From: Blastocatellia bacterium
GTDB lineage: Bacteria; Acidobacteriota; Blastocatellia; UBA7656
NCBI GenBank assembly: GCA_035293105.1
Contig: DATDOV010000100.1
Location: forward strand, 90,857 to 154,856
Direction of reading: 5' to 3'
Length of the DNA: 64,000 nucleotides
Part shown: in pieces, positions 1,617-18,768 of the stretch
Layout: every line of letters begins with the position of its first letter
Position numbering within the stretch: the stretch's first letter is position 1
Program-made: the position numbers and the translations under genes
The notes under the pieces: generated by a model
Database searches by the model: none
What the model saw: only the letters and a program-made list of their open reading frames with translations
What the model was told of the DNA's origin: nothing

Positions 1617-1648
1617 GCGCCGCTGTGAAACCAGTGGGCGCTTTTCAT
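1616..1648 (+). terminator. rho-independent terminator-like hairpin after NHL gene
   Basis: AAGCGCC-gctgtgaaaccagt-GGGCGCTTTTC sits immediately after the TAA stop at 1614-1616. Confidence 0.5.
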
Positions 1649-1671
1649 AATCTCGGAAAGGAGAAGCTGTA

Positions 1672-2385: not shown

Positions 2386-2440
2386 CAACGGTGCAGAGGT
2401 GTGAGGGGCAGGCCTCACACCTCGCTGTTGCTCCAGAGAG

Positions 2441-3550
2441 GTGTCCATGAAAAAGAAAGCGGTAGTGTACCTAGTCGGCGCTTCGTCGCTCGCCGTTCTT
2501 CTCGCTCTGTATTTCCTGGCCAAGGGCAACGGCGTTGCCGAATCCCCAGAGCTGAGCACTCCCATCGAATCCGGGAGTGCCAAGCCGGCGCTTCATGAGC
2601 AAGTCTCATCCCGGTTCCCGCTTGCTTTGCCGCTCCCCGCCAAACCCGAAGACACAGGCAAAAACTCTGCGAGTCCCGGCGTTGTGGCGACCGTGAACGG
2701 CATTCCGATAACGGCAAAGGAGGTCGAAGAAGAACTCAACAGGCTCCTGATGTCCCCGACAGCCCACGGCGGGATGGACGCGAGAAGGAAAGATGATGTG
2801 CGAAAGTCCGCGCTTGACGAACTGATTGTCCGCGAACTGGCGTTTCAAAGGGCCAAGGCGATGAGATTGACGGTCGACGCGGATGAGGTCGCCGCTTCGA
2901 TCAAGACAATAAGACAGCGTTACAACTCGGAGCAGCGTTTCCAGAGAGCACTAAAGATCGAAGGGATGACCGAAAACGAGTTTCAGCAGAGAGTTGAGAG
3001 AGATCTCCTTCTCAAGAAGATTCACCAGGTGGAAATCGAGGACAAAGCTCAAGTCGGCGAAGACGAAGTAAGAAAATACTACGAGGAGAACAAGGTTAAG
3101 TTTTTGCTCCCCGAGTCCATTCAACTGAAACACATCGTCGTCAGGATCGGCGCGCGGAAAGAGCCCGAGGCCAAAAAGCTGATCGACACGATCAGCGAGA
3201 AGCTGAAGAAGGGAGAAGACTTCTTCGACCTGGCCTACAAGTTCTCAGAGGACGAGTATCGCGTCGTTGGCGGTGATTACGGCTCGGTGCATCTGGGACA
3301 ATTGGATCCCGAACTTGAGGCAGTCGCGTTTGCTGCTGCGGTGAACCAATTGACGGGTCCGTTCAAGACCAGCCGCGGCTGGCACATCATCAGCCTCGAG
3401 AAGAAGCAGGCCGAGCGGCAACTGAAGTACGAAGACGTAAAGGAAAAGATCAAAGGCGGCCTCCAACAGAAGCTGCGGAGCAAGAGGCGGTCGGAGTTCG
3501 TCAGTGAGTTGAGGGCTTTGGCCCAAATCCAGTACCTGAGCCGCCGCTGA
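2441..3550 (+). CDS. SurA-like periplasmic chaperone / PpiC-type (parvulin) peptidyl-prolyl isomerase
   Basis: Signal/anchor, then a SurA_N-like helical region, then a parvulin rotamase signature (GGDYGSVHLGQLDPELEAVAFAAAVNQLTGPFKTSRGWHIISLEKK). Confidence 0.7.
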   Translation: MSMKKKAVVYLVGASSLAVLLALYFLAKGNGVAESPELSTPIESGSAKPALHEQVSSRFPLALPLPAKPEDTGKNSASPGVVATVNGIPITAKEVEEELNRLLMSPTAHGGMDARRKDDVRKSALDELIVRELAFQRAKAMRLTVDADEVAASIKTIRQRYNSEQRFQRALKIEGMTENEFQQRVERDLLLKKIHQVEIEDKAQVGEDEVRKYYEENKVKFLLPESIQLKHIVVRIGARKEPEAKKLIDTISEKLKKGEDFFDLAYKFSEDEYRVVGGDYGSVHLGQLDPELEAVAFAAAVNQLTGPFKTSRGWHIISLEKKQAERQLKYEDVKEKIKGGLQQKLRSKRRSEFVSELRALAQIQYLSRR

Positions 3551-3565
3551 TCAAAGAATGTGTGA

Positions 3566-5437
3566 GTGCGCGCAATGAAACGCCCGGTGTCACAACTTGC
3601 CGTCTTGATGCTGATCGCTCAGTGCTTCGCTCCTGCCTACTCGCAGGAGAGACTAAACCTGAGCGGGGTACTGACCATGGGCTACTCCAAGACGCAGCAG
3701 ACCGCTCAGGCCGTGAACCCTGATGTCGTCACCGAGAATCAATCGCGCGAATTCGGTATCGGTCTTGACTTGAACCTGGGCGCATATATCATCGACCCTC
3801 GTTTCATTAAGGTCTCGTTCGAGTCGAGCTTTCTTCGCAACAAGGGGGCCTTCGATGAATTCCAGACGCGGTACGGTATAACAGGGAAGAATGTCTATGT
3901 TGATTTCCTCCCGACCTCGCCTTATCCATTCAGGTTTCACTACATCAATCAGAGCAGCAACTATCTCCAGAGGCCGATTGCCTCGGCGGCCACCGGGCGC
4001 CGGAGCCTGGGCTTCAACTGGGCGCTGAGATTGCCAAAGTATCCCAAGCTCAGTGTGAGCTACGACAGCACGAGTTTTGACTACAGCTTTACTTCAGGCG
4101 TTATGGCCAAGAGTCACACCAGGACGTTCAACGCCGGAGTTTCGGGTAGCTATAGAGGGTGGGACTTCACCTCCGGATATGACAACCAGACGACGACCGA
4201 TGGGCGCTTGCAGCTAGGAACGTATCAGAACCTTTGGCGCCTCGACGCACGCAAGCCTGTATCGAAGAAGTCAAACCTGTACGTCGGCACTTTCTACCAG
4301 GGACTTAGGTTTTCGAGCGAGGTTACGGGGTTGAGACAACGATTGTCATTCTTCGATATTCACTCGGAGTTCAGCACTCAACACACTAACAAGCTCAGCA
4401 GCAGATTCGCGCACCAGTTCTATTACAACACCAGCACCCAGGAGACTGATCAGCAAGGCGTTCGACCCGAAGCGGGAGCCGTCGCTGCTCCAGCGGTGCC
4501 GGCGCTACGTCCCACGCGCACAACTACACAGTTCAACGTCGTCGATGGCCTGGTGGCCTACCGAGTACGGTCGGAGGTCACGGTCAGCGGGACCCTCAGC
4601 ACCCGGCTGACGAATGCTCCGAACGAATCAACCGAAGCAGCGACTCGATTCTTCGATCTTGGAGGAACAATCACCTGGAACAGGAGAATCGCCTTCGCCG
4701 AAACAAGGGCTGCCTACAGCCAGGGCCTCGAATACGCCGGGTCGAACATGGGCAGTAGCCGAAGGACCGAGCACCATAGCCTCGCGGCGGGCCTTAGTCT
4801 GGGTAACAGGAAGCGCGCCCTCGTCACCGCTGATTTCAACCTGTCTTATCGCCCCGATATTTTTCAAGCCGGCGGATTCTTCTCACAGAAGTACTTCAAC
4901 GCCGGTGTCGAGAGCGAAGCGTTGAGGGCTCTCAGGTTGAGCGCGTCGGTCGGGAAAAACGAGGTCGAATACCTGACTTTCAACGGACGTGAGCACTTGC
5001 GCCGCACGTCGTATTCGGCCGGCGTGGATCACCGGCGATTCACGCTGGTCTTCTCACGAAACTCGAACGCCGGATTGCGAGACGTCTTCGCGATCCCCGT
5101 ACCGTTGGAGCCAAATCGGATCTTCAGAGTTCTGCCCGTCGGTTCGCTGATCAGCAATCCCCTATTAAACACCTCCGCGTTCAATACCTTTGCTCTGCTG
5201 AGAGTGCGGCCCAGAAGGAATCTGGACCTGGAAGCGAGGTATTACCAGGACAGGGCGCTGTTCGTGACAACAAACAATGTCTTCGTCAAGCAGTGGGACG
5301 TGATCGCTACATACAAACTCGGGAAGTTCACCTTCTACGGGGGCGCGCTGTTTTACAAGCAGACAACCGAGGGATTGTTGTCCAGAGACAGGACGTACTA
5401 TTTCGTCCGGGTAACTCGGCCGTTCAAGGTGCTTTGA
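3566..5437 (+). CDS. putative outer-membrane beta-barrel (porin-like) protein
   Basis: Signal peptide MRAMKRPVSQLAVLMLIAQCFAPAYSQ. 623 aa rich in S/T/N/G/Y/R with alternating amphipathic beta-strand-like stretches. C-terminus is ...YYFVRVTRPFKVL. No enzymatic motifs were seen. Confidence 0.5.
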   Translation: MRAMKRPVSQLAVLMLIAQCFAPAYSQERLNLSGVLTMGYSKTQQTAQAVNPDVVTENQSREFGIGLDLNLGAYIIDPRFIKVSFESSFLRNKGAFDEFQTRYGITGKNVYVDFLPTSPYPFRFHYINQSSNYLQRPIASAATGRRSLGFNWALRLPKYPKLSVSYDSTSFDYSFTSGVMAKSHTRTFNAGVSGSYRGWDFTSGYDNQTTTDGRLQLGTYQNLWRLDARKPVSKKSNLYVGTFYQGLRFSSEVTGLRQRLSFFDIHSEFSTQHTNKLSSRFAHQFYYNTSTQETDQQGVRPEAGAVAAPAVPALRPTRTTTQFNVVDGLVAYRVRSEVTVSGTLSTRLTNAPNESTEAATRFFDLGGTITWNRRIAFAETRAAYSQGLEYAGSNMGSSRRTEHHSLAAGLSLGNRKRALVTADFNLSYRPDIFQAGGFFSQKYFNAGVESEALRALRLSASVGKNEVEYLTFNGREHLRRTSYSAGVDHRRFTLVFSRNSNAGLRDVFAIPVPLEPNRIFRVLPVGSLISNPLLNTSAFNTFALLRVRPRRNLDLEARYYQDRALFVTTNNVFVKQWDVIATYKLGKFTFYGGALFYKQTTEGLLSRDRTYYFVRVTRPFKVL

Positions 5438-5438
5438 C

Positions 5439-6524
5439 ATGCGCTTAGCGATGAGTTCAAACAAGCCGAAGCTCACTAAGCTTGTCGCTGCCACTCTCTT
5501 TGGCGTTGCACTCGTTTTCTCGCTCTTCATAGCGTCAAACGGCGAGCACGGCGACAAAGAGAAAGAGCTGTACTGGCCCAGCCCGCCTGATCCGCCGCGA
5601 ATCAAGTACGTGCGCAGCATCGCGTCTCCGCGGGACCTTAAGCTCAAGCAGTCGTCGTTTCTCAAACGCGTGGTCAAGAAGATCATCGGGACCGAGGATC
5701 CCGAACCAGCCATGATGTCGCCATACGGCATCGTCACCGACAGCCGCCAGCGCATCATCGCAGTCGATTCAAAGGCGAGGATGATACACGTCTTCGATCC
5801 GCAGGAGAAGAAGTACGTCGCCATCAGGGCGCCGAAGAAAGAGATGTTCGTCTCGCTGGTCGGCGTAGCCGTCGACGGACAGGACAACATCTACGTCTCG
5901 GACTCGTACACCGGGAAGATATTCATCTTTGATCGAAACGGCAAACTCATTAAGAGGATTGGTTCCGAGGAAGGAAGCTTCAATCGGCCCACCGGCATTG
6001 CGATAGACAAGGCTTCGCGGCGCCTGTACGTCGTCGAAACCGTGAAAGGCGAGGTCGACGTGCTGGACCTTGACGGGATTGGATTATTCAAGTTCGGCAA
6101 GCGCGGAGAAGGCCAGGGCGAGTTCAATCACCCGACGCAAATATGCGTCAGCGGCGACAGCGTGTATGTCACCGACACGCTGAACGCTCGCATTCAAGTC
6201 TTCGACAAGGACGGACATTTTATTTCGGTGGTGGGGCGGCACGGCGATGGCATTGGGGATTTGGACAAACCCAAAGGCGTCGCGATCGATAGCCACGGGC
6301 ACATCTATGTCGTCGAAGGGCTTCGCGACCGGGTTCAGATATTCGATAAGGAAGGGAACCTTCTCCTCGTGTTCGGCGAGACGGGATCCGACAGAGGAGA
6401 GTTCTACTTGCCGACGGCCATCCACATAGACGCCGACGACAATATCTACATCTCCGATTCCAGCAATCGGAGAATCCAGGTCTTTAGGTACCTGAGAACG
6501 CCAGGGGCAGCGATAAGGGATTGA
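5439..6524 (+). CDS. secreted NHL-repeat protein, paralog of 531..1616
   Basis: Same length (361 aa) and same repeat pattern (IYVSDSYTGKIFIFD, LYVVETVKGEVDVLD, VYVTDTLNARIQVFD, IYVVEGLRDRVQIFD, IYISDSSNRRIQVFR). Signal anchor present. Confidence 0.75.
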   Translation: MRLAMSSNKPKLTKLVAATLFGVALVFSLFIASNGEHGDKEKELYWPSPPDPPRIKYVRSIASPRDLKLKQSSFLKRVVKKIIGTEDPEPAMMSPYGIVTDSRQRIIAVDSKARMIHVFDPQEKKYVAIRAPKKEMFVSLVGVAVDGQDNIYVSDSYTGKIFIFDRNGKLIKRIGSEEGSFNRPTGIAIDKASRRLYVVETVKGEVDVLDLDGIGLFKFGKRGEGQGEFNHPTQICVSGDSVYVTDTLNARIQVFDKDGHFISVVGRHGDGIGDLDKPKGVAIDSHGHIYVVEGLRDRVQIFDKEGNLLLVFGETGSDRGEFYLPTAIHIDADDNIYISDSSNRRIQVFRYLRTPGAAIRD

Positions 6525-6527
6525 TCT

Positions 6528-8423
6528 ATGAGAGCGAGGAGATTGCTGCTAATAGGTTTTTTCTGTTGCGTGCTCGGCGAAGTGGTCCATAGCCAGAGTT
6601 CCAAGGCGCAGTTGTTCAACTCAAAGCACGACTTCAGGGTCAACAGCAGCGCCGCCATTCGCTCCACAGCGGAAGGCCGAATCTGCGTTTTCTGCCACTC
6701 GCCCCACAACGGCAATCCGAGCCCCCAGATATGGAACCACAAGACGTCATCGGTTTCGAACTATCCCCTCTACGGCAGCACGACCATGCGGGCGACCACC
6801 ACCCAACCGACTAGTTCAGACTCGTCGAAATTGTGCCTGAGCTGTCACGACGGAACCGTGGCGCTGGGTGATACGGTGAACAACGGCCTCATTCCTTTCA
6901 TTCAGGGTTCGAACTTCACGCTTCCCGCGTCTTCGTCTTCGAACCTTCATAAAGGCGTCGGTTTTTCCGATGATCACCCGTTCGCTTTTCTGCCGGTCAC
7001 CGGCTCGGAGATAAGAAACCCGCCTGCGGGTGACGCGGTGAAGCTGGACCGATCGGGCAAGATGCAGTGCACGTCCTGTCACGATCCTCACGTTCAATCG
7101 AAGGACGCAACCGTCGGCAAGTTTCTCGTCGAATCGAATCTGAAATCGGCCCTTTGCACCACCTGTCATACTAAGACAGGCTGGACTGCGGCATCGCACA
7201 AACAGCCTGCAAGCGGTGCGAATGACAACAGGTACGGAACCTCGCAGGGCGCGCACACCGGTTACACGGGCGTGTCGAACAACGGCTGCGAAAGTTGTCA
7301 TCGCCCGCACTCGCCCGCGGTGGGACAGCGTCTGCTCAAGTTTGTGGAGGAAGACACTTGTTACAAGTGCCATAACGGTTCGGTCGCAGACACCAACAAG
7401 AACATACAATCGGAGTTCCAGACTAAGACGTACCGGCATCCGGTGTCGACCACGCCATCGGTGCACGACGCATCAGAAGGTCCGGCCTCGCTGACCTATA
7501 AACTGCCGGAGAGTTCGTCGGGAGCCGCGCGGCACGCCGAATGCGCGGACTGCCACGACCCTCACGCCGCGAATCCGCAAACCGGTTCGCCGCCGTCCGT
7601 CGCCGGCTACTTGCGTGAAGTCGCGGGCATTTCATCCTCGGGCACGGAAGCTTCGAGCGCGAATTACGAATACGAGGTGTGTTTCAAGTGTCACGCCGAC
7701 AGCGCGAACAAACCACAGCTTCTCGGCGGTGTGAGCTTTGGCCGGAATCCGCTGCGACAGACCGACGATAACAATCCCAGCCGCTTCAATTCCCGATTTG
7801 AGTTCAACTCGAGTGTCGCCTGGCATCCGGTGATAAACCCACGAGGCCTCTCAACAGGAACGAGCGGGTTCGTTCCGAGCCTCAGGTCAGCGCCGCTTGG
7901 GACCAACGGCCAGCCGCTGCCGGGAAGGTCGCTCTCGGCAAGCAGCTTCATATACTGCACCGACTGCCACAACAACAGCTCGGGAAGGAACCTCGGAACG
8001 GGAACGGGTCCCAGCGGCCCGCACGGCTCGAACATCATTCACCTGCTCGAGCGCAACTACTCATACAACACGCCTCCTGCAAATCCGGGCGGGACGATGG
8101 GACAGGTGACTTACTCGACCGCCGCTTATGCTCTGTGCAACAAGTGCCACGACGTCGACGGCAGCATCGTACAGAACCGAAGCTTCAAGGAGCACGACAA
8201 GCACATTCGTGGAGAAGGGGCCTCGTGCTCGGTATGTCACGACTCGCATGGGATCAACGGCGGCAACGCGACCAACAACAAGTTTCTGATCAATTTCGAT
8301 CTGAGCATAGTCGGCCCGGACAGCAGCGGCCGGCTCAGGTATGAATCGACTGGTTTTCGACGAGGCAGTTGTTACCTGACCTGCCACGGCGAGGAGCACA
8401 ACCCTAAGACATACAGTCAGTGA
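6528..8423 (+). CDS. large multihaem c-type cytochrome (~12 haems), secreted
   Basis: Signal peptide. Carries CVFCH, CLSCH, CTSCH, CTTCH, CESCH, CYKCH, CADCH, CFKCH, CTDCH, CNKCH and CSVCH, plus a C-terminal CX3CH variant (CYLTCH). Confidence 0.85.
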   Translation: MRARRLLLIGFFCCVLGEVVHSQSSKAQLFNSKHDFRVNSSAAIRSTAEGRICVFCHSPHNGNPSPQIWNHKTSSVSNYPLYGSTTMRATTTQPTSSDSSKLCLSCHDGTVALGDTVNNGLIPFIQGSNFTLPASSSSNLHKGVGFSDDHPFAFLPVTGSEIRNPPAGDAVKLDRSGKMQCTSCHDPHVQSKDATVGKFLVESNLKSALCTTCHTKTGWTAASHKQPASGANDNRYGTSQGAHTGYTGVSNNGCESCHRPHSPAVGQRLLKFVEEDTCYKCHNGSVADTNKNIQSEFQTKTYRHPVSTTPSVHDASEGPASLTYKLPESSSGAARHAECADCHDPHAANPQTGSPPSVAGYLREVAGISSSGTEASSANYEYEVCFKCHADSANKPQLLGGVSFGRNPLRQTDDNNPSRFNSRFEFNSSVAWHPVINPRGLSTGTSGFVPSLRSAPLGTNGQPLPGRSLSASSFIYCTDCHNNSSGRNLGTGTGPSGPHGSNIIHLLERNYSYNTPPANPGGTMGQVTYSTAAYALCNKCHDVDGSIVQNRSFKEHDKHIRGEGASCSVCHDSHGINGGNATNNKFLINFDLSIVGPDSSGRLRYESTGFRRGSCYLTCHGEEHNPKTYSQ

Positions 8424-8680: not shown

Positions 8681-11161
8681 ATGAAGCGCGCGGTCTTGTA
8701 CGTCGTTGTCACGATGCTCATCTGCTTTTCGTTCAACGTCCCTGCGGTCGCGCAAGACACTCAGGGATCCTATTCCCTGCCGCCGGGCCATGTCATCCCC
8801 GGCCGGCCCTGGTCCAGCATTATCCCCGATCCCGACAGGTTCGACTGGACAGCTCGCGACGGCGGCCGGCCAGGTTACCGGTACCGCGGGATGCTGCCCA
8901 TGCAGCAGCGGTTCTACGACTACATCCAGCAGCAGCGACGTGCCAACATACCCCTGAGTTGGGCGGAGCAGGCGACGATCCGCTGGCTCATCTCGTCTCG
9001 GCGGTGGCCCGAAGCGCCCCGGCCCAACGCTTTCTGGTCGGCTTTCATGCGCTACCTCCGCGACCAACCGACCAGGAACCTCAACATCGCCCAGTCCATC
9101 ATGCTGGACCAGCTACGCTCGCGTGGCCTCGTGCCCGTCGACAGGGCTCCTGATCCCAATTTCGCGCGCATACGCGACTACCTCAACTCCGGTCCCTTTC
9201 ATTCGCGCAACTGGTTCGAGCGCGTTTTCGGCCGCGCCGAGCCTTGGATGGACAATCTCTACGCGGGTTGGGGGTATGACCTTCGGCCCAGCGCGCCGTC
9301 CGGCAATTCCTTCCCTGCGGGCGACCCTTTCAACGGCTTGAAGATCACTTATAACGTCAGCGGCGCGACGCTGAGCGCACCTGTCGACAGCGGGAGCTTC
9401 ACCATCAATCGCAGCTTCAAAGGAGTCCTGGGAACCGGCATGCTCGCCATTTCCGGCACGGTTCGCGTCGGCGGCTACGGCGCGGACGTCAGCCTCAGCG
9501 TCTGGGCGGGCGACAAGAAGGAAGAGAAGAAGTTCTACGTCGAGAACAAGGGCAGCAACGGCAACCCTCAGAACTTCAACCTCTCGGTGCCGATCCCCGG
9601 GGGGGCGCGCACCGGCGGCTTCGCCATTCGACTAGACGGCCGCTACTCGATGGGCGGCGGCCACCGCGGCTGCTACGTGACGGGTGAGTTCGGTCCCTCA
9701 CAAGCCCAGATCGACGCCGATCGCGCCGCTGCCGACGCCAAGTGGCGCCGGGAGGTCGAGGACACCCTCGCCCGCCTCGGTTATCAGAACACGCCCGAGG
9801 GCAAAGAGATCGAGGAGATGCGCAAAGCCCTGGCCGGCGGCGACGCGGCATGGAAGGCCTTCGTTGATGACCGTCTCGAACGGATGCGCGGGGACGACTC
9901 TCCCGAGATTGCGGAGTACAAGGAACTGGAGAACGCGATGACGGCCGGCGGCGCGGAGTGGGATAAATACGTCGCGGCTCATGGCACGTCCGGATCGACC
10001 GGTAGTCGCGGCAACGCCGTGGCGGCTTCGTCACTCATAAAACAGGGCCGCGACTACTACGAGAAGAACAAGTACAACGAAGCCGCCGATGCCTTCACGA
10101 AGGCGATCGAAGCCAATCCTGATTCGGCGGAAGCCTACACGGGCCGCGGCAACGCCAGGCGCAGCTTGCGCGACTATGCAGCCGCAAGCGCCGACTTCAA
10201 CAAGGCGATTGCACTCGATGCGCGAGCTTCCGAAGCCTATCGCGGTCGCAGCATGGTCAAGCGCGCGCAGAATGATTTCAGCGGCGCGCTGGCGGACGCG
10301 AATCGCGCGATCGATCTCGCGCCGAATTTCGATCGCGGTTATTTGACGCGGGGACTCGCGCGCGAAGGTCTGAAGGACCTCGCCGGCGCGCTCTCCGATT
10401 ACAACCGCGCGATCTCGCTTGATCCGAGCTACGCTATGTCCCACTACTATCGCGGCCGCGTGCTATTTGAGAGCAAGGACTACGCGAGGGCGATCCCGGA
10501 CTTCAACCGCGCGATCTCGCTCGACCCAAGTTACGCGATGTCCTATTTCCAGCGCGGACGCGCGCGATATGCGAGCAAGGACTACGATGGCGCGCTTGCA
10601 GACTACAACCGTTACATCGAGATGAACGCGACCGACAGCGCTGCGTTCAACAATCGCGGCCTGGTGAAGGAACGACTGGGAGACAAGAACGGGGCTATCG
10701 CTGATTACGAAAAAGCAGTCAGCATTAATCCTCAGAACGAAATCGCGAAGGGAAACCTCAGTCGTTTGCGAGCGACCTCCACAGCGACAAACCCATCCGG
10801 CTATCCCGATGTCGCGGGCGAGTGGGTTGAAGTATCGGGATATCCCTCGAACGGGAGCCCGATCACTATCACTCAATCCGGCGCTAACATTGTCGCAGTC
10901 GGTCGCTACACCATCGGGAATACTGCAATTGCATATAGAGTCGACGGGACCCTGACGCGTGACGGAGTGATCACTGGGCGGCTGGTCCACACCAAGGGCG
11001 TCTCGCCCGGTTCGCCGGGATTTGCCCAGGACCGGCGGATGACGCTCACGCCAGACGGCAACACCCTCAACATCTCGACAGCGTCGGTGGGTGGTGGAGG
11101 CGCGCATCAACTGAGTTGGCGGCGACGGGATCCAACGTCAACGAAGACAACCCCGCCTTAG
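8681..11161 (+). CDS. secreted TPR-repeat protein (826 aa) with unknown N- and C-terminal domains
   Basis: Signal peptide MKRAVLYVVVTMLICFSFNVPAVAQD. About 10 TPR units in aa ~450-700 (AEAYTGRGNARRSLRDYAAASADFNKAIALD..., YYRGRVLFESKDYARAIPDFNRAISLDP..., FNNRGLVKERLGDKNGAIADYEKAVSINP). Confidence 0.7.
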   Translation: MKRAVLYVVVTMLICFSFNVPAVAQDTQGSYSLPPGHVIPGRPWSSIIPDPDRFDWTARDGGRPGYRYRGMLPMQQRFYDYIQQQRRANIPLSWAEQATIRWLISSRRWPEAPRPNAFWSAFMRYLRDQPTRNLNIAQSIMLDQLRSRGLVPVDRAPDPNFARIRDYLNSGPFHSRNWFERVFGRAEPWMDNLYAGWGYDLRPSAPSGNSFPAGDPFNGLKITYNVSGATLSAPVDSGSFTINRSFKGVLGTGMLAISGTVRVGGYGADVSLSVWAGDKKEEKKFYVENKGSNGNPQNFNLSVPIPGGARTGGFAIRLDGRYSMGGGHRGCYVTGEFGPSQAQIDADRAAADAKWRREVEDTLARLGYQNTPEGKEIEEMRKALAGGDAAWKAFVDDRLERMRGDDSPEIAEYKELENAMTAGGAEWDKYVAAHGTSGSTGSRGNAVAASSLIKQGRDYYEKNKYNEAADAFTKAIEANPDSAEAYTGRGNARRSLRDYAAASADFNKAIALDARASEAYRGRSMVKRAQNDFSGALADANRAIDLAPNFDRGYLTRGLAREGLKDLAGALSDYNRAISLDPSYAMSHYYRGRVLFESKDYARAIPDFNRAISLDPSYAMSYFQRGRARYASKDYDGALADYNRYIEMNATDSAAFNNRGLVKERLGDKNGAIADYEKAVSINPQNEIAKGNLSRLRATSTATNPSGYPDVAGEWVEVSGYPSNGSPITITQSGANIVAVGRYTIGNTAIAYRVDGTLTRDGVITGRLVHTKGVSPGSPGFAQDRRMTLTPDGNTLNISTASVGGGGAHQLSWRRRDPTSTKTTPP

Positions 11162-11421: not shown

Positions 11422-11504
11422 CACGACCGAGGCTGAGCTGCTAGTTCTTTCGGGCACGTGACTGGCAGGGGAGCAGCCGAAAGCGGACTGACGAACCGTC
11501 AGTC

Positions 11505-13481
11505 TCAACGTTGAGAGTCTACAGGTCGCACCGGTCCGCCCGTCACGATCTCCCTTATCTTTCTCACTTCCGCTTCAGCCTTATTCAACTCGTCGTAGGA
11601 AGATTTGCGGAGGGCGAGGTAACTATTGCAATCCACGGGCAATCGATACGCGCTCTTCAGACGATTTATTTCGCCTTCGGCCCTCAATCCTTGTTGCTCT
11701 ATTTGTCTCGACAGTTGTCTCAATCTGTCCACCTCAGCGACCATTCTCATTTCATCCCGTCCATTGGTTGCATCGGCTATTGCCTCGTCTCTTTCTTGCT
11801 CAAGCGCCGCCGCCTTGGTAGTCAGCGCACTCACCTTGCCGTCAAGTTCTTTCCTGGCCTTCTCAGCCTCCTGGTACGCCGCCAGCGCTGCCTCCTCCGC
11901 AAACAATGCGTCCGCACGCCCCATTTCCGCAAACGCCCTCGCATCGTCGGCTTTCTTCACGAGGTCGTCCCGCACCGCCTTCTCGTACGCGGCCTGACCC
12001 CTCGCCTCGATTTCTTGACGTGCCGAGTCACGATCAGCAAGCGCATCTCTAACTTCGGTTCTAGCGATAGCCGCCTCAGTCCTAGTTTGAATCACCAGGA
12101 CGGCCACTGAAGCTATTACGAGAGCGGCCATTAGACAGATACCAACCAGCCAGTACAACCGTCGTCTCCTGACTCGGTCCGCTTCCTCAAGTCTACGGCG
12201 CTCGATCTCCGCCAGTCGTTCCACCTTCTTTTGACTTATCCATGGAACGAGAAACTCACTGACGATGTCATAGAAGTAGGTATTGTACCGTCGTTCCCGA
12301 CGGACAAGTTTGGTGTCCTCCACCAAGGCATTCAAAGCAGCTTTCAACCGGCCTTCAGGGATGTTCTCGCCGTCAGGCGCCCGACCGATCAGGTCTTCTT
12401 CGGAAACGACGTTGCGTGTACCGGCGGCGGTTACGAGGCGGCTTAGCAAAGCTACAGCCGGGTCTCGGAGATCATCTGCACGACGCGAGCTGTCGCTGGC
12501 TAACCGGGCACCGGAAAGCAACGCCATGGCCGGACTCGGCGGATCACCTGCAAGCTGGTTAAGAGCGTCCGATAGATAGTCCTCCAGAAGACCCTGAACG
12601 CCTCTCTGTTTGAACAAGCCTCCGGGGTCGGGGGACTCCCACAGCCTTCGGCAGGCAATCTGAACCTCGGACAAGCTGAGCGCCCCGGATTCCGTTCGCT
12701 CATCAATGGCGGCTGCCAAATCCTGAGCCAGTTCCGGTGAGAGTTCCGCCCTAAAGCTCCCTGGGAACCTCTCGAAAGGTCCACGGATAATGTTATCCAA
12801 TGCCTTCGTACGCAGCGTCGTTAGCCGCAGGTATTGATCCGGCAATTCGGGGCAGAGCACGAATAACTTCGTGAGCTTCGCCAGGTAGTCTTCCCTGAAT
12901 GTGAACAGGAGCTTCACCCCAAGCCGCGGGTCGCGCATCAACTCGACCACAGCCTGGAGAATCGCCTGCTGCGCGGCTTGAGCTTCTTTCAAAGCCTCGC
13001 CTCGCGGGGCTTCCTCGAACAAGGTGACGAACTCTTCAAACTGGTCGAAGATCAACAACGGTTGCCGGTCGGCCGCTGCGGCCCTGAGCTTCTCCATGAA
13101 AGCGCTAATAGAGAGCACGATGCGCGGGCGCTCCTCGTCATCGGCGAAGACCGACGGCAGGAACGGTGCCTTGCCGTCGCCGGGAATCGAGATGCGCTCG
13201 ACGACGATCTCCTCATTGCGGGGAGGCTGAACGCGTAGTCTTTCCGGCGTAAAGCCCTCGGTGATCGTCGCTGGGATCAATCCCGCGTTGATCAGAGAAG
13301 ACTTGCCCGAGCCCGATTCGCCGTAGAACAACACGCCGCGATAGATCGTGACGTAGCGCAGCAGCTTCCTAGTTTCTTCCTCTCGCGCGAAGAAGATCGC
13401 TTGATCGGCATAGCGGAAGGAGTCGATTCCGCGGTAGGGCGACTCGGGCAGCGAAAGCGGCGCGGTTGCAGAGCTTGTCAT
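11505..13481 (-). CDS. nSTAND/NACHT-like P-loop NTPase with C-terminal transmembrane helix and long coiled coil
   Basis: The N-terminus PYRGIDSFRYADQAIFFAREEE...VLFYGESGSGKSSLINAGLIP (Walker A) and Walker-B-like LLIFDQFEEFVTLFEE are the pattern of bacterial STAND NTPases usually fused to WD40/TPR. Here aa ~447-470 form a TM helix (LYWLVGICLMAALVIASVAVLVI) followed by ~190 aa of heptad-rich coiled coil. The start overlaps the stop of the upstream SIR2 gene (ATGA). Confidence 0.75.
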   Translation of the reverse strand: MTSSATAPLSLPESPYRGIDSFRYADQAIFFAREEETRKLLRYVTIYRGVLFYGESGSGKSSLINAGLIPATITEGFTPERLRVQPPRNEEIVVERISIPGDGKAPFLPSVFADDEERPRIVLSISAFMEKLRAAAADRQPLLIFDQFEEFVTLFEEAPRGEALKEAQAAQQAILQAVVELMRDPRLGVKLLFTFREDYLAKLTKLFVLCPELPDQYLRLTTLRTKALDNIIRGPFERFPGSFRAELSPELAQDLAAAIDERTESGALSLSEVQIACRRLWESPDPGGLFKQRGVQGLLEDYLSDALNQLAGDPPSPAMALLSGARLASDSSRRADDLRDPAVALLSRLVTAAGTRNVVSEEDLIGRAPDGENIPEGRLKAALNALVEDTKLVRRERRYNTYFYDIVSEFLVPWISQKKVERLAEIERRRLEEADRVRRRRLYWLVGICLMAALVIASVAVLVIQTRTEAAIARTEVRDALADRDSARQEIEARGQAAYEKAVRDDLVKKADDARAFAEMGRADALFAEEAALAAYQEAEKARKELDGKVSALTTKAAALEQERDEAIADATNGRDEMRMVAEVDRLRQLSRQIEQQGLRAEGEINRLKSAYRLPVDCNSYLALRKSSYDELNKAEAEVRKIREIVTGGPVRPVDSQR

Positions 13482-14359
13482 AGCGGCATCTCCTCGCCCG
13501 TAACGGCACGGTACAGTTTCGGAAGGAAAGTCCAGACGTCCTGCGCGATGAACTTGACGTACTGCTCCTGGTCGGCCAATACCTTAACTAACAAGAGGTC
13601 GGGATGGGGATCCACGGAATACGTGTTCGGGCGGTTCGCTTTATCGATCCGCCAGCGCAGGGTCTTGAACAGCAGCCGGAGGTTGTAATCCATGAGGCTG
13701 TAACCCACGAACAACGTCGGCCAGCGCTTGAAGTTGTAGCGGAAGGTCTCCGGCACCGGGTGGTAGGGGTCCTTGTCGCTCATACGCAAGACGAACTGAA
13801 TGTAGTCTTCATCGGTGACGACGATGGATTCGGGTTTCTGGATATCGCCATGAATCTTGAAGACGAAAGGCCGCGTGCTGGTCGCGTCAGTGTAGTCGGC
13901 CGTCACGGTGTACTCTTCCTTGCTGTAGACGCCGATGTATGGGTCCTTTGCCGCGTCCCACAGCGCTCTTTCATAGAGTTGGTCGTAGTTGGTGGTGATG
14001 ACGAGCGGAAAGTTCAATCGCGCGAGCGCGCGAAGCACGGGCGAAGGCTTCTTCCCGACCTGCACAGCACTGACCATCTCTTCGACCAACTCGCGCCGCG
14101 AGCGTTTCGTCTCGTAGTACAGCGACACTCTTTGGAGATTGCCCGTGCTCTCGCGGGGGAACTGCTCGGCAAAGCCGCTCTTGGCGGCGAGCCGCTCGGA
14201 GAGCGCGCGGCCGAGCGGCGGGCGCTCGGATTCAGGGTAGCTGTACTTCGAACCTTCGGGCGGCGGGTAATGCACACCAGCTCCCATGAAGAGAATACAC
14301 TGACCGTTGTTCACCTTCTCGGCAATCGCAGCAATCGTCGCCTCGTCGGCATGCTCCAT
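13478..14359 (-). CDS. SIR2-like (SIR2_2 / DSR-ThsA-type) NADase-domain protein
   Basis: Motifs CILFMGAGV, NFPLVITTNYDQLYERA, FKIHGDIQKPESIVVTDEDY and LFVGYSLMDYNLRLLF are characteristic of the SIR2_2 family. The start was chosen at MEHADE (ATG 14359), with RBS AAGGAG 8 nt upstream. The longer ORF (to 14626) would overlap the vWA gene. Confidence 0.8.
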   Translation of the reverse strand: MEHADEATIAAIAEKVNNGQCILFMGAGVHYPPPEGSKYSYPESERPPLGRALSERLAAKSGFAEQFPRESTGNLQRVSLYYETKRSRRELVEEMVSAVQVGKKPSPVLRALARLNFPLVITTNYDQLYERALWDAAKDPYIGVYSKEEYTVTADYTDATSTRPFVFKIHGDIQKPESIVVTDEDYIQFVLRMSDKDPYHPVPETFRYNFKRWPTLFVGYSLMDYNLRLLFKTLRWRIDKANRPNTYSVDPHPDLLLVKVLADQEQYVKFIAQDVWTFLPKLYRAVTGEEMPL

Positions 14360-14538: not shown

Positions 14539-16230
14539 TCAACGCTTCGCCCGCAGGACAACCACTTTGTCTTCGCCTTCCTTGACCTCGAAGTCTATGC
14601 GGTCGTACTCGCCCTTCTGCCTCCAACCGGTGACGCTGTATCGCCCGGGAGTAAAGGGGTACTTTTCGTTCGAGTTCCTGAAGATTCTCTCATTGCCGTT
14701 GGCTGTGCTGGCGAAGCACCGATCGGGTTTATCCGGCGTGCCATCGGCCTTCTGATAGACGAAGGTCACGTGGCCGACCGGAACCGTGATGTCGAAGTGC
14801 TGCTGCTTCTGGTCGGTCACCACGATCCCGGTCTTGACGTACGGTGTCAGAGCGTTGGGCAAACGCACATCGTAGACGCCGGGAAGCACAGTCTCGCCCA
14901 GCGTCATGTGCACGCGGTACCTCTTCTCGCCGTTTTGCCATAGCTCGTAGTTCTCGCGAAACCATATTCCCGAGCCCGACGCCACCATCTTCACCGTCAC
15001 CCGAACCGTGTGGGCCATGCCGAAGACGATTTCTTTGCGTTCTCCGGCGGCGATTGTTGCCGTCGTCGAGAGATCATTCGCAGCGTTAGGCCGCGCGCGA
15101 AACTCGTAGGCGCCTTCATCGACGAAGACCTCATCAAAATAGCGGAAACTGAAGACCTCTTTGCCGTCTTGAAAAGCATGGACCAGCGAGCCGCGCTGAT
15201 CCTCGCCCTGGTCGGTGAATCGCGCTCTCACGGTTGGCGGCGTGGGGACCTCGACCTTGACCACAGTCGCGCCGGTATCCGCGACTTGGACGCTCTTGGT
15301 CACGGGCCTGTACATATTGCCGTTAGCCGTCGGAACCCCGGCCGTCAGCGTGTACTGGCCGGCCTCGACGCGGCCGGCGCTGCTGCTTGTAACTTTGTAA
15401 AGGTCCCGGCCCTCGCGCGAGAGAACGCCGACGACTCTTATGCGGCTCCCCGCTGCGTCGACGCCCTGTAACCAGAATCCCGCGAGGGCTGCTTGCGCTT
15501 GCTTATGGATCTTCCCCATTTCATCAGCCAGCGTTAAAGCCGACTGGGCATCGTGATACTGGGTGCCTGCTGCGTTGGAGATGCACTCGAGGGTCTGTCG
15601 CTCTTTTTCGCCGAGTCCGAAGCCGACGACGTGAACCTTGATCTTCACGTTTTTGTTTTTCCACTCGCGGACCAGCGCGCACGGGTCGGCTTCGCAAGAC
15701 TCGATGCCGTCGCTGATGAGGATAATCTCGCCGGGCCGGTCGCCGAAATCTTTGAGGGCCTCAGCGAGGCTGTACGTTATCGGCGTTCTGCCAATCGCGT
15801 TTATTCGCTTGATCGACTCCTTGAACTGAGCGACGACTTTTTCGGGAGGGCCGAAGGGAATTAGAAGCTCAGAATCCGCGCAATCCTCTTTTCTCCGGTG
15901 GCCGTAGACTCGAAGCGCGAGGTCGTAACCGGGAAAATCCTTGGCGACGAAATCCTGGAGTACCTGTTTGGCCGCATCGATCCGGCGCGACTTGTCGGGC
16001 AAACGCGCCATCATCGAGCCCGACGCGTCGAAGATGATATAGATGCCGGCCGCTTTGTTTTCCTGCTGGGCAGCTTGAGCCGCAGAGTCGGGTGAGGGGG
16101 CATCATCGCTGCGCTTCTCAACTACCGGTGTAACCACCGCCGGGTTGTTGCCCGCGTCGCCTGACGGCGGAGCGGTGGAGCAACCGGCGATGGCGCATAC
16201 GACCGCGATGTAAATCAGTTCAATCTTCAT
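14539..16230 (-). CDS. von Willebrand factor A (vWA) domain lipoprotein with C-terminal beta-rich domains
   Basis: Lipoprotein signal MKIELIYIAVVCAIAGCS. vWA MIDAS-type start IYIIFDASGSM...LISDGIESCEADPC...VHVVGFGL. Confidence 0.7.
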   Translation of the reverse strand: MKIELIYIAVVCAIAGCSTAPPSGDAGNNPAVVTPVVEKRSDDAPSPDSAAQAAQQENKAAGIYIIFDASGSMMARLPDKSRRIDAAKQVLQDFVAKDFPGYDLALRVYGHRRKEDCADSELLIPFGPPEKVVAQFKESIKRINAIGRTPITYSLAEALKDFGDRPGEIILISDGIESCEADPCALVREWKNKNVKIKVHVVGFGLGEKERQTLECISNAAGTQYHDAQSALTLADEMGKIHKQAQAALAGFWLQGVDAAGSRIRVVGVLSREGRDLYKVTSSSAGRVEAGQYTLTAGVPTANGNMYRPVTKSVQVADTGATVVKVEVPTPPTVRARFTDQGEDQRGSLVHAFQDGKEVFSFRYFDEVFVDEGAYEFRARPNAANDLSTTATIAAGERKEIVFGMAHTVRVTVKMVASGSGIWFRENYELWQNGEKRYRVHMTLGETVLPGVYDVRLPNALTPYVKTGIVVTDQKQQHFDITVPVGHVTFVYQKADGTPDKPDRCFASTANGNERIFRNSNEKYPFTPGRYSVTGWRQKGEYDRIDFEVKEGEDKVVVLRAKR

Positions 16231-16355
16231 CGGACCCTCTGTTCGCTTGTCTTCCTTCGCAGTGGTTCGTCTCCGAATCAGTAGGCGCGACAACTTGGTG
16301 GATAAAAGCCAGTGTGAATAAACCGTAGTCGCGGCGCCGGCAAGCCCGCCGGGAA

Positions 16356-16958
16356 TCAGAATGACACCTGGATGCGTATCTCTATCTTGACGCTGCCGGA
16401 GCCATGCTTCCCGTAGTCATCGGCGGCCTTGCGGTTCATCTCAACGCCCAGCTTGATCTTGTAGTTGGCCCCGACCTTCCACTCGCCCAGATCGGCTTTG
16501 GCCCTATTGAGAAACTTCCGGGCCTTGTCGTTCTTGTCTCTCTCGTCTCTGGCGGGCGGGTCCTGCAGGCTGATCGAATCGAGCTGCTTTTCCAGGTCGT
16601 CGAGTTTCTTCTTAAGCACGTCTGCCTTAGCTTTCAAGCTCCGCATGCAGCCGACGAAGGTCTCAGCCACCAATCGATATGCCTTGGCCCAGTCGTCCCA
16701 CTCTTCTTTCGGCGCGCCGTCCGCCGGACGATTCGCCTTCGCAAACTGTTGGAAGGTGTCAAAATTCAACGAGCACTGTTCAAGCTGGTTCAGCGTCTGA
16801 TTATAAGCGGCCACCGTCGCATCGTAGGTTTCTTCGACCGACTGTTCCCGGCCGAACGCAGACGCGGGAAACGCGAGCGCGACGACAATCGCCGCGAGCA
16901 CTACGACCGCCGTATAGCGAGCGCCCCTTCTGTCACCGTCGGTCAACACGCTTCTCAT
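16356..16958 (-). CDS. small secreted coiled-coil protein (hypothetical)
   Basis: Signal peptide MRSVL...AFPASAFG. EEWDDWAKAYRLVAETFVGC motif shared with 18797..19285. Confidence 0.45.
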   Translation of the reverse strand: MRSVLTDGDRRGARYTAVVVLAAIVVALAFPASAFGREQSVEETYDATVAAYNQTLNQLEQCSLNFDTFQQFAKANRPADGAPKEEWDDWAKAYRLVAETFVGCMRSLKAKADVLKKKLDDLEKQLDSISLQDPPARDERDKNDKARKFLNRAKADLGEWKVGANYKIKLGVEMNRKAADDYGKHGSGSVKIEIRIQVSF

Positions 16959-16988
16959 GATGCCCTCCTTCCATCCAATCATCCGTGG

Positions 16989-17690
16989 TCAGTCTTTGTT
17001 TCCTCGCTTCAGCCCTTCCAACGCCTTTTTTACATCCGCGCCTTCCGTGATTGTCACATCTGACGGGATTGCGAACTTATCGGCGGGAATCGAGGCGTCC
17101 GCGTCGAATCTCGTAGCCGTACTCGTGATCTCCATCCCGGCCATCTTCGTTTGCACCTTCAAGGTCACAGAGTTCCAGACCCAGCTCTTGCTGCCGAGGT
17201 TTTTCACCTCCCAGACGTCGCACATCTTGCCGGCTACCTCTTCAGAGCCGGTCTTCACTCCTCCCATGTCTCTCATCATCTTTTCGCCAAGCTCGGCCAG
17301 GTCTTTCGTACCGGCACGGTCGGTGATCTGTTTGAACAAGGGGTTCTGTGTTTTCGCGCCGGTCCTTTTGTCGAGGTCGATCGCGTAAATCCACTCGCCG
17401 TCCAACAACGTCAGCCTGTTGGATCTCTGAGTCATTCCTGCGACGGTTAATTCGCTCCTGGTGTACTTTGCTTCGCGCATTCCCCATCGGTCGAAGTACA
17501 CGGTTTCGGCGCCCTTCTGCGCGCCGCTCATCGTGTACTCAACGATGCCGGACTCTATCTGATATCGCTTAAAGCCGGCGTCCTTCATTCCCTCGCTCTT
17601 CATCTCGCCGCTGCTTGTGCCACTCGGTTTACTGCATGCGCTTGCGAGCGACACTAGCAACAGAAGGGCAAACAGGCTCCACGTTTTCAT
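16989..17690 (-). CDS. hypothetical lipoprotein
   Basis: MKTWSLFALLLLVSLASACS lipobox. ATG at 17690. Confidence 0.5.
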   Translation of the reverse strand: MKTWSLFALLLLVSLASACSKPSGTSSGEMKSEGMKDAGFKRYQIESGIVEYTMSGAQKGAETVYFDRWGMREAKYTRSELTVAGMTQRSNRLTLLDGEWIYAIDLDKRTGAKTQNPLFKQITDRAGTKDLAELGEKMMRDMGGVKTGSEEVAGKMCDVWEVKNLGSKSWVWNSVTLKVQTKMAGMEITSTATRFDADASIPADKFAIPSDVTITEGADVKKALEGLKRGNKD

Positions 17691-17730
17691 GAAAACTCTC
17701 CTCCGTGACTGGTTTGAATGAACCGGTGGA

Positions 17731-18768
17731 TCAAGGCTTCTGCGGCTGTCCTCTGAACCGCACCAGGTGGTTTCTGGCAAGGCCGCTGCCCGAAGTTATT
17801 TCCGCGACTGAGTACTTCTCTTCAACAGTGGTTACCCTGAGCGTGCCGACCTTTCGATCCGGCGTGCCGAGCGTCTTTCCGGTCTCAGGATCCACGAGGG
17901 GCGGCTGCTGATGATAGACGTCAAACTCCATTCCAGGGCGAATGCCTTGTTCCGATCCGGCGTTGATGTAGACAAGCCCCTCGCGCACGTCGATGACGCG
18001 TCCCGACCACGGGACCGCCTTCATTCCCGAGACGATCGCCGCCACGGCGTTTTCGATTGCCTCGCGCGAGGCGTGGCCGAGCGGCGTGTTCTTGAAGCCC
18101 GACACGCTGAACTCCTGATCGCGGCGTGTAAGCTCCGCGCTGGCGCCCGTCATCGACGCCTTCCCCTCCGCGCGTTGTGAGAAGATCACTTCGCTGGTTA
18201 CCGCGTCGACGAGCCGGATGTCGAGGGCCACCATCGCCGTCACCCGGTCCGATTTCGCCTTCAGTATCTTTATCGGTTTGAAAGTGCCGCCGATCGATGT
18301 CTGGTTGTAGGCGAACTCCGTTATGTCACCGGTGATGAGGGTCTGCGCCCCGATGACGCGGCCACTGGCGGCTGCCGTTTCCTTGTTGACCCGCCCCGAA
18401 GCGCCGAAGTCCTGCTCGCCGGTTACGTCCTTGATGGATGCGCGCTCGACGACGATGAACCGGCCCGTCTTCACCAACTCGGTCGTGAGCATCTCGGTGA
18501 GCCCAAGCGCAAATTCAGCCGGGGGGGGAAGCGCGATGGTCGTGCTGCGAGAATCACGGTCCTCTTTGACATACTCCCTGAAGGCGGTGCCCGAGATGCT
18601 CATTACCGCGATGCGCAGCTTCGGGCCGGTCCAGGGCGGCTGTACTTCCTTCTGCCCGAATGTCGCCGGCGGAAGAAACGCCAGTAGACAAAGGGTCGCC
18701 GTGGCACAGGCCATAAGCTGAAAGTTGCCGGTACGGTCGATTCCTGACCTGTCGAGCATTCGATTCAC
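17731..18768 (-). CDS. CsgG-like (curli-secretion-channel family) lipoprotein with extra C-terminal domain
   Basis: LTEMLTTELVKTGRFIVVERASIKDV...ASGRVIGAQTLITGDITEF...VALDIRLVDAVTSEVIFS matches the CsgG-family core pattern. Signal peptide present. Confidence 0.55.
   Translation of the reverse strand: MNRMLDRSGIDRTGNFQLMACATATLCLLAFLPPATFGQKEVQPPWTGPKLRIAVMSISGTAFREYVKEDRDSRSTTIALPPPAEFALGLTEMLTTELVKTGRFIVVERASIKDVTGEQDFGASGRVNKETAAASGRVIGAQTLITGDITEFAYNQTSIGGTFKPIKILKAKSDRVTAMVALDIRLVDAVTSEVIFSQRAEGKASMTGASAELTRRDQEFSVSGFKNTPLGHASREAIENAVAAIVSGMKAVPWSGRVIDVREGLVYINAGSEQGIRPGMEFDVYHQQPPLVDPETGKTLGTPDRKVGTLRVTTVEEKYSVAEITSGSGLARNHLVRFRGQPQKP

Follow-up and report, generated by a model that had tools for sequence, protein, structure and literature searches.

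Which role can be assigned to a STAND NTPase that ends in a hydrophobic segment and a long helical tail? The question is raised by a gene on the minus strand of a 64,000-nucleotide stretch of DNA from a Blastocatellia bacterium (contig DATDOV010000100.1, positions 90,857 to 154,856; in the following, the window). The gene occupies positions 11505-13481 of the window, and the feature in question, formed by nucleotides 12084-12152 and the tail codons, lies in the 3' third of this open reading frame. The initial annotation of this DNA had noted a transmembrane helix and a coiled coil in place of a repeat-type sensor domain, and had proposed either membrane-localised sensing or a scaffold role similar to that of SMC or EzrA. 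Based on gene neighbourhood, family comparison and structure prediction, we assign a probability of roughly 0.5 to the following answer: the gene and its upstream neighbour at 13478-14359 form a two-gene SIR2/nSTAND1 conflict module with a bitopic STAND protein, which probably acts in anti-phage defence or regulated cell death. A constant NTPase combined with swappable death effectors and a hypervariable C-terminus is the signature of NTP-dependent conflict systems, as described by Kaur et al. (PMC7159879, PMC8195603).

Among the clues to function, the pairing with SIR2, which had not been noted in the initial annotation, is the strongest. The upstream gene encodes a predicted NADase of the SIR2_2 family (Pfam SIR2_2, expectation value (E) 7e-26; PADLOC model of the ThsA-type SIR2, E 1.7e-21), and its best relatives in the PDB are KomC, DSR2 and ThsA. 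The catalytic Asn of the TTNYD motif and the His of the KIHGD motif are kept, the latter being aligned with H146 of KomC. The stop codon of the SIR2 gene and the start codon of the nSTAND1 gene share an ATGA overlap (Table 1), which indicates translational coupling of the two genes. The same arrangement was found in a scan of related loci, for which one genome per species was used: in 17 of 17 close loci, a SIR2 homologue (E 1e-49 to 1e-111) ends at the nSTAND1 start. These loci belong to Acidobacteriota, Actinomycetota, Chloroflexota, Verrucomicrobiota and Bacteroidota, and the protein identity to the query is 37-51%. Many more distant loci contain larger SIR2-like genes at the same upstream position. 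Furthermore, all three homologues with a coil-type tail for which genes were called independently (P0007, P0022, P0044) have a SIR2_2 gene of 294-296 residues directly upstream, and P0117 is a natural fusion protein consisting of SIR2, nSTAND1, a transmembrane helix and WD40. A counterpart of the gene for a vWA lipoprotein that lies upstream of the SIR2 gene (14539-16293) was detected in none of 80 related loci; because this gene is not conserved, the module is taken to comprise two genes. By a strict scan, no intrinsic terminator was found after the nSTAND1 stop codon. Just past this stop, at 11470-11504 of the minus strand, a hairpin GACTGACG-gtt-CGTCAGTC followed by CGCTTTTCGG resembles a weak intrinsic terminator that would end a two-gene operon.

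The product of 11505-13481 is a clear member of the known nSTAND1/STAND family. It matches Pfam nSTAND1 (PF20703) with 111 bits, compared to a gathering cut-off of 27.1 (E 1.3e-31), which bears out the STAND NTPase assignment of the initial annotation, and the same hidden Markov model is matched by all 55 relatives scanned. The protein is identical to a 658-residue product (P0001) predicted in a metagenome-assembled genome of Blastocatellia (Acidobacteriota), where it is annotated as hypothetical; it was called independently on three contigs. A model computed with AlphaFold2 (AF2) on the basis of the homologue alignment has a mean pLDDT (predicted local distance difference test) of 83, with values above 90 over most of residues 10-465 (10-310 and 340-465). 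Foldseek matched this model to ORC/Cdc6, to the archaeal ATPases 2qen and 2fna, to ZAR1 (6j5t) and to CED-4 (E 4e-8 to 2e-5). According to the model, the protein has the AAA+/STAND fold, in which the nucleotide-binding domain comes first, the helical domain second and the winged helix third. A sequence search with the NTPase module against the PDB yielded no matches, and no known defence-system model of PADLOC or NCBIfam fits the NTPase. At E up to 0.1, PADLOC contained no matching Avs model, just weak P-loop matches (mad3, JetC, LmuB, mad8). As stated in the initial annotation, the 658-residue protein lacks a repeat-type sensor. It further contains an insertion of 25 residues that is missing from all aligned homologues (Table 1). 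A DNA repeat that would point to a tandem duplication as the origin of this insertion was looked for and none was detected. The sequence PAMALLS within the insertion resembles a conserved PAVALLS slightly downstream.

The helix that follows the winged helix stands out from the rest of the protein. In a Kyte-Doolittle profile averaged over 19 residues, the maximum lies at residues 444-466, and all other segments remain below 1.6. The core of this hydrophobic helix consists of 23 uncharged residues. Its position differs by less than 10 nucleotides from the approximate coordinates 12075-12145 given before for the one strongly hydrophobic segment. In the AF2 model, residues 411-481 form a single unbroken helix, which runs from the end of the winged helix via a basic juxtamembrane stretch through the hydrophobic segment, where the pLDDT is 93-96; the tail beyond it is predicted to be almost entirely helical.

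Homologues with the same C-terminal architecture are frequent. A strongly hydrophobic segment that is preceded by an Arg/Lys cluster is found at the same place in 101 of the 120 best database matches. In order to avoid any bias from tail similarity, the NTPase module alone was used to search 1.84 billion cluster representatives. With a threshold of E 1e-3, this search identified 23,103 representatives, of which 472 remained when the threshold was set to 1e-30. Among the 150 best representatives, 133 (89%) contain the hydrophobic helix, which starts at a median of 28 residues past the winged helix; 54 of these 133 proteins have tails of 60-320 residues, and the tails of the remaining 79 are longer. 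The sequence of NTPase, transmembrane helix and tail is the norm in the nSTAND1 clade. The statement that a membrane-tethered coiled-coil STAND protein is unusual is correct compared to the characterised Avs and NLR proteins, but not within the clade.

The same survey bears on the concern, raised in the initial annotation, that separate genes for an NTPase and a membrane coiled-coil protein have been joined by a frameshift or an assembly error. The sharp difference in conservation between the tail and the NTPase would agree with such an artefact. However, the reading frame is continuous, the identical protein exists on three contigs, and the AF2 helix is uninterrupted from the winged helix through the transmembrane segment. 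Most importantly, the layout is present in 133 of 150 representatives and in genomes of five phyla. With the same architecture in more than 100 homologues, a fusion of two reading frames is ruled out for all practical purposes.

The orientation in the membrane can be predicted from the distribution of charges. In the 15 residues flanking the helix, the homologues contain on average 6.7 Lys and Arg residues on the N-terminal side and 3.2 on the C-terminal side, and the N-terminal number is the larger one in 98% of 98 proteins. Hydropathy and flank charges together give what is expected of a bitopic protein, in which a single hydrophobic helix of some 20 residues should have its positive charges on the side of the cytoplasm. 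Because the NTPase part of 440 residues lacks a signal peptide and needs cytoplasmic nucleotide, and because there is a single spanning helix, the tail should be located outside the cytoplasm. We therefore infer from sequence that the nSTAND1 protein is bitopic in the orientation N-in/C-out, with a cytoplasmic NTPase and an external C-terminus. In relatives, PASTA, PG_binding_1, TonB_C and GH25 domains come after the transmembrane helix. Domains of these types normally bind peptidoglycan or act on it outside the cytoplasm. Of these, TonB_C and PG_binding_1 are placed distally, behind spacers of 120-150 residues, and the spacer of the TonB_C example is heptad-rich. These cases suggest that the stalk positions its distal end at the wall.

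A helix in this location could also be an effector itself. Oligomerisation would then cluster the transmembrane helices and tails into a pore or lesion, SIR2 would be a second effector, and sensing would occur in the cytoplasm. Membrane effectors are common in bacterial immunity, transmembrane segments have been described among bacterial NACHT domains (bioRxiv 10.1101/2022.07.19.500537), and the transmembrane helix is the most conserved feature of the protein after the NTPase. On the other hand, a lone helix at the C-terminal, sensor-side position, with large folded domains behind it in half of the relatives, is reminiscent of a receptor more than of a pore-former. Moreover, the adjacent gene already provides a dedicated enzymatic effector, and the positive-inside pattern indicates stable bitopic insertion. 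A pore-forming role of the helix is therefore highly improbable.

The region behind the helix is highly variable in the family. For a census of tails, a combined sample of 207 helix-bearing relatives was used. A WD40 propeller was found in 71 of them, an FGE-sulfatase domain in five and TonB_C in three; GH25 muramidase, PG_binding_1, TPR and FHA were found in two each, and PASTA in one. Among the helix-bearing members is also a tail that combines TPR and GH25, and the closest homologue, P0002, ends in a PASTA domain. Relatives that lack the hydrophobic helix tend to have tails of pentapeptide repeats, and this type of tail is confined to them. None of the domains listed was present in 121 of the 207 tails; these 121 have a median length of 169 residues, and in 72 of them, A/E/K/R/Q/L/D account for at least 60% of the sequence. 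On the effector side, fusions to TIR, trypsin, caspase, CHAT and kinase are found elsewhere in the NTPase family.

The tail of the query belongs to the group without a recognisable domain. Its last 184 residues contain 33 Ala, 22 Glu and 22 Arg, in agreement with the composition noted initially. The heptad a/d score is 2.3 standard deviations above that of shuffled sequences and is reached by 2% of them, and a hydrophobic periodicity of 3.5 residues is reached by 2.2% of the shuffles. Salt-bridge pairs at i/i+3 and i/i+4 are enriched (z 2.5). The same heptad statistic was computed for 81 homologous tails of 90-320 residues and yielded a median z of 3.7, with 85% of the values above 2; for the NTPase region of the same 81 proteins, which served as a control, the median z was 0.56 and 1% exceeded 2. 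One relative's tail matches Pfam Tropomyosin (E 6e-7) and that of another matches the HALZ leucine-zipper model (E 5e-4), both matches being under the cut-off. A sequence search of the query tail against the PDB gave no relative. A pure single alpha-helix (ER/K) domain was considered in place of a coiled coil; this is unlikely, as the tail is 39% charged, which is too little, and 21% strongly hydrophobic.

The initial annotation had described the tail as an uninterrupted heptad-rich coiled coil. Its helical and heptad-like character stands, but it is interrupted. Residues 473-497 are modelled as a low-confidence helix with short breaks, a loop is predicted at residues 613-618, and the register shifts three or four times, with Ala at many core positions. 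Residues 649-658 are probably disordered, as judged from a pLDDT below 50. We conclude that the tail is a helical stalk of the coiled-coil type with interruptions, and that most of its relatives are stronger examples of such a stalk. The helix of residues 492-612 would be about 18 nm long if straight. It is plausible to assume that all 192 residues form an elongated helical, probably coiled-coil, stalk of about this length, which reaches toward the cell wall.

Of the 81 coil-type tails (P0003-P0113), 49 contain one, two or four Cys residues, chiefly in the C-terminal part (for example, L-x-K-x-C at the very end or C-x15-22-C). This pattern is compatible with, but no proof of, disulfides in an oxidising, non-cytoplasmic compartment or a disulfide-type lock between the chains of a parallel coiled coil. 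In a subgroup (P0012, P0013, P0016, P0017, P0019, P0020, P0022, P0027, P0028, P0029, P0031, P0034), the last 45 or so residues form a conserved helix-loop-helix cap at the tip of the stalk, often with two Cys. The last 52 residues of the query align loosely with this cap, and the similarity is not significant. Tails diverge faster than the core: proteins with 93% identical NTPase modules have tails that are 60% identical, and at 83% identity of the modules the value is 39%.

Given this architecture, a mechanism can be outlined that is speculative in each of its steps. At the outset, the stalk would change its oligomeric state or its conformation in response to an event at the envelope, for which phage adsorption or ejection, damage to the cell wall and an attack by a competitor are candidates. 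This change might travel inward along the transmembrane helix and the juxtamembrane helix that is continuous with it, reach the winged helix and the NTPase, and lead to STAND oligomerisation. The oligomer would then activate the partner SIR2, and the resulting hydrolysis of NAD+ would stop growth, as in Avs5, DSR2 and ThsA. Extended to the family, this leads to the tentative proposal that the nSTAND1 clade comprises transmembrane NLR-like receptors, of which the query would be a minimal form. NTPase and SIR2 would be cytoplasmic and the sensor or stalk would reside in the periplasm or wall, such that envelope events might trigger NAD+ depletion before, or without, an invasion of the cytoplasm. 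Of the two roles put forward in the initial annotation, membrane-localised sensing is the one favoured by the evidence.

Alternatively, the membrane segment may be an anchor and nothing else. Sensing would then take place in the cytoplasm, via the NTPase and winged helix or via SIR2, and the transmembrane helix and coil would hold the complex, pre-assembled into a dimer or oligomer, at the inner membrane, possibly close to where phage DNA enters, with the tail carrying no signal. Several properties of the tail fit such a structural role. Coil-type tails are poorly conserved and contain no recognisable ligand-binding domain, coiled coils are typically constitutive oligomerisation devices, and the only Cys of the tail lies distally and could serve as a dimer lock. 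Yet STAND proteins carry their sensors at precisely this position, relatives hold functional domains there (FGE-sulfatase, WD40, PASTA, PG_binding_1, TonB_C, GH25), and the remainder of the 440-residue cytoplasmic part shows nothing sensor-like in the AF2 model. A purely anchoring function thus appears doubtful.

Several observations weigh against a SIR2/nSTAND1 conflict module with an external stalk. The flanking genes are mostly of the housekeeping type (UDG, GCV_T, SOD, SelB). From the 17 close loci, 94 flanking open reading frames were compared with PADLOC, and no more than a handful matched a model with an E of 1e-10 or below; the specific matches are SoFic, JetD, PDC-S04 and PDC-S24. Support from defence islands is weak, and the assignment to defence is not secure. 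Phage genomes and viral contigs were both searched, and no relatives were found in them. With regard to the stalk, the heptad signal of the query is modest and the pLDDT in this region is 50-79; the coiled coil is bare, with no obvious ligand pocket, and the fast divergence of the tails may mean weak constraint instead of diversifying selection. With regard to topology, some relatives have a domain of a usually cytoplasmic type behind the hydrophobic helix, either FHA (P0102 and P0120, residues 471-536) or classical WD40, and this sits uneasily with a uniform C-out orientation. Finally, no paper that describes a pairing of SIR2 and nSTAND1 in which the latter combines a single-pass helix with a tail of the coiled-coil type was found in a literature coverage that is incomplete.

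The housekeeping flanks lead to a further explanation, according to which the two genes encode a signalling pair that connects envelope and cytoplasm in normal physiology. The ATPase would report the status of the wall, and SIR2 would be a regulated deacylase or ADP-ribosyltransferase and not a suicide enzyme that depletes NAD+. The conserved order UDG ... SIR2-nSTAND1 ... SOD in two Pyrinomonadaceae genomes and the weak PADLOC enrichment in the flanks are in line with this explanation, as are the peptidoglycan-related tail domains of relatives, which are also found in growth-regulating PASTA kinases of the PknB type. However, the partner belongs to the SIR2_2 group, and its nearest solved relatives (KomC, DSR2, ThsA) are all defence NADases. 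The family swaps SIR2 for TIR, caspase, trypsin or CHAT, which is typical of conflict systems (PMC8195603, PMC7159879). A patchy distribution across phyla at 45-51% identity, two loci in one metagenome-assembled genome, and hypervariable tails are further arguments against a housekeeping pair, which we regard as unlikely.

Table 1. Features of the nSTAND1 gene and its SIR2 partner. Positions refer to the window; residue numbers are those of the 658-residue nSTAND1 protein.
Feature	Position	Strand	Details and evidence
nSTAND1 STAND NTPase gene	11505..13481	minus	continuous open reading frame, 658 residues plus stop codon
Partner gene, SIR2_2-family predicted NADase, 293 residues	13478..14359	minus	starts with ATG at 14359; GAAGGAG 9 nucleotides upstream
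ATGA overlap of SIR2 stop (TGA) and nSTAND1 start (ATG), CTATGACA	13478..13481	minus	GAGGAG 9 nucleotides upstream
Pfam nSTAND1 match, residues 15-293 (nucleotide-binding and helical domain)	12603..13439	minus	Pfam; AF2 pLDDT >90; Foldseek
Walker A, GESGSGKSS, residues 54-62	13296..13322	minus	G57, G59, K60, S61 and S62 invariant in 46 homologues
Walker B, PLLIFDQFEE, residues 141-150	13032..13061	minus	D146, Q147, F148, E149 and E150 invariant in homologue alignment
Insertion of 25 residues unique to this protein, residues 312-336, GDPPSPAMALLSGARLASDSSRRAD	12474..12548	minus	missing from all 45 aligned homologues; low pLDDT
Winged-helix region, residues 339-410; SEFLVPW (408-414) at its C-terminal edge	12252..12467	minus	AF2 secondary structure; alignment columns nearly invariant
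Basic juxtamembrane helix, residues 411-443, ending in RVRRRRLY	12153..12251	minus	AF2
Predicted single transmembrane helix, residues 444-466, WLVGICLMAALVIASVAVLVIQT	12084..12152	minus	Kyte-Doolittle 2.96; position conserved in homologues
Tail predicted outside the cytoplasm, residues 467-658 (192 residues), Ala/Glu/Arg-rich, helical, heptad-like	11508..12083	minus	composition, AF2, heptad tests
Long predicted helix, residues 492-612 (121 residues)	11646..12008	minus	AF2/DSSP, pLDDT 50-79; 3.5-residue periodicity, p 0.02
Cys618, sole Cys of the tail, in loop 613-618 between the two terminal helices	11628..11630	minus	sequence and AF2
Terminal helix, residues 619-646 (distal cap)	11544..11627	minus	AF2

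The wider surroundings of the pair are mixed. On the minus strand of the window, upstream of the SIR2 gene, positions 14539-18768 encode the lipoprotein-like vWA protein mentioned above, two reading frames without a family match and a CsgG-like lipoprotein (17731-18768). On the other side, an 826-residue, probably secreted protein with a TPR array (8681-11161, plus strand) is convergent with the nSTAND1 gene, and positions 531-8423 of the plus strand encode NHL beta-propeller proteins, a SurA-like peptidyl-prolyl isomerase and a multihaem cytochrome of 631 residues with paired CXXCH motifs. About 9 kb from the pair, the minus strand encodes a 948-residue TPR-CHAT protein (23205-26051), in which a caspase-like protease is combined with a TPR array, an architecture of the conflict-system type. 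Farther away, a protein of 664 residues (42122-44116, plus strand) has double zinc ribbons at its N-terminus and, at its C-terminus, an FGE-sulfatase domain, which is also one of the tails of nSTAND1 relatives. In the two Pyrinomonadaceae-type genomes, the loci of P0007 and P0022 (L081/L082 and L085) have the gene order GCV_T, UDG, hypothetical gene, SIR2/nSTAND1 pair, Fe-SOD, urate oxidase. The NTPases of these two loci are alike and the tails are different. On plasmids, only distant nSTAND1 proteins with 25-31% identity were found, and these are fused to other effectors.

Bitopic STAND proteins that have an external stalk and are coupled to a SIR2 gene appear to be a widespread variant of which we found no description in the literature. 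To our knowledge, the characterised bacterial STAND and NLR-like immune proteins (Avs1-5, Avs7, bNACHTs) are all described as soluble cytoplasmic sensors of phage proteins. If the proposed reading is true, NLR-like machines could detect events beyond the cytoplasm and relay them inward by way of one helix, and one protein would join roles that eukaryotes split between surface receptors and intracellular NLRs. The SIR2/nSTAND1 pair would accomplish this in a compact form of about 950 residues in total.

The scaffold role proposed in the initial annotation can be assessed by a direct comparison. Both EzrA and SMC contain a long helical region similar to a coiled coil, EzrA is attached to the membrane and SMC is an ATPase. 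EzrA, however, has an N-terminal anchor, a cytoplasmic coiled coil and no NTPase, and its topology is opposite to that of the nSTAND1 protein; in SMC, an antiparallel coiled coil that contains a hinge divides an ABC-type head into two parts. In contrast, the protein studied here has an ATPase of the STAND/AAA+-like type, an internal anchor and a coil whose predicted location is outside the cytoplasm, on the side of the membrane opposite to the ATPase. Pfam gave no match to EzrA or SMC, and the tail lacks a sequence relative in the PDB. These results speak against the scaffold. The SMC-type matches in PADLOC are weak and confined to P-loop residues 48-66 (JetC, E 0.0028; LmuB, E 0.018).

With respect to overall layout, there is a resemblance without homology to bitopic receptors such as PASTA Ser/Thr kinases of the PknB type and ToxR-like regulators, which consist of a cytoplasmic catalytic or regulatory module, one transmembrane helix and a sensor outside the cytoplasm; here, the cytoplasmic module is a STAND NTPase, and the output is a separate SIR2 enzyme. 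The partner shares the SIR2_2 fold and the catalytic residues with KomC (Kongming), DSR2 and ThsA (Thoeris). Compared to these, it is a bare SIR2 domain of 293 residues, with neither a SLOG domain nor a DSR2-type sensor, and without ThsB or KomA/B neighbours. An assignment to Thoeris was rejected: there is no SLOG domain and no TIR gene, and the neighbours are the nSTAND1 and vWA lipoprotein genes.

The nSTAND1 family (PF20703) was named by Kaur, Iyer, Burroughs and Aravind in 2021 (PMC8195603), and examples diversified by diversity-generating retroelements, with targets predicted to be cytoplasmic, are known from Thiohalocapsa (bioRxiv 10.1101/2023.09.22.558884). No mention of a transmembrane helix or of SIR2 pairing was found in these two nSTAND1 papers. 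The described conflict NTPases share with the query the NTPase family and the principle of a constant core with interchangeable effectors and variable C-terminal regions. They are linked to effectors by EAD or Death-like adaptors and use FGE-sulfatase, WD40 or TPR sensors, whereas here there is no adaptor domain, the SIR2 effector is encoded by a separate overlapping gene, and a single-pass transmembrane helix is followed by a helical stalk as the sole tail. A survey from 2026 distinguished 589 STAND clades including nSTAND clades; membrane topology is absent from its main text (PMC13581612). Because only sensors of at least 400 residues were clustered in that work, short tails like that of the query lie outside its sensor clustering.

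Among characterised defence systems, Avs5 (AVAST type 5) is an anti-phage STAND protein with the order SIR2, NOD and sensor, in which assembly activates NAD+ hydrolysis (PMC11897194, PMC12931631). The control of a SIR2 NADase by a STAND NTPase is common to both systems, and the domain order is the same in the fused relative P0117. In contrast, Avs5 is a single soluble polypeptide with a large cytosolic C-terminal sensor, and the module described here comprises two genes, an NTPase of another clade, a membrane crossing and a tail of 192 residues. Membrane segments at the sensor position of STAND proteins have been seen before: Kibby et al. listed a C-terminal class 'TM regions' of bacterial NACHT proteins and suggested intramembrane or periplasmic recognition (bioRxiv 10.1101/2022.07.19.500537). 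That class belongs to the NACHT clade and usually contains multiple transmembrane segments, sometimes inside the NTPase. The protein analysed here belongs to the nSTAND1 clade and combines one transmembrane helix and an extended tail predicted outside the cytoplasm with a conserved SIR2 partner.

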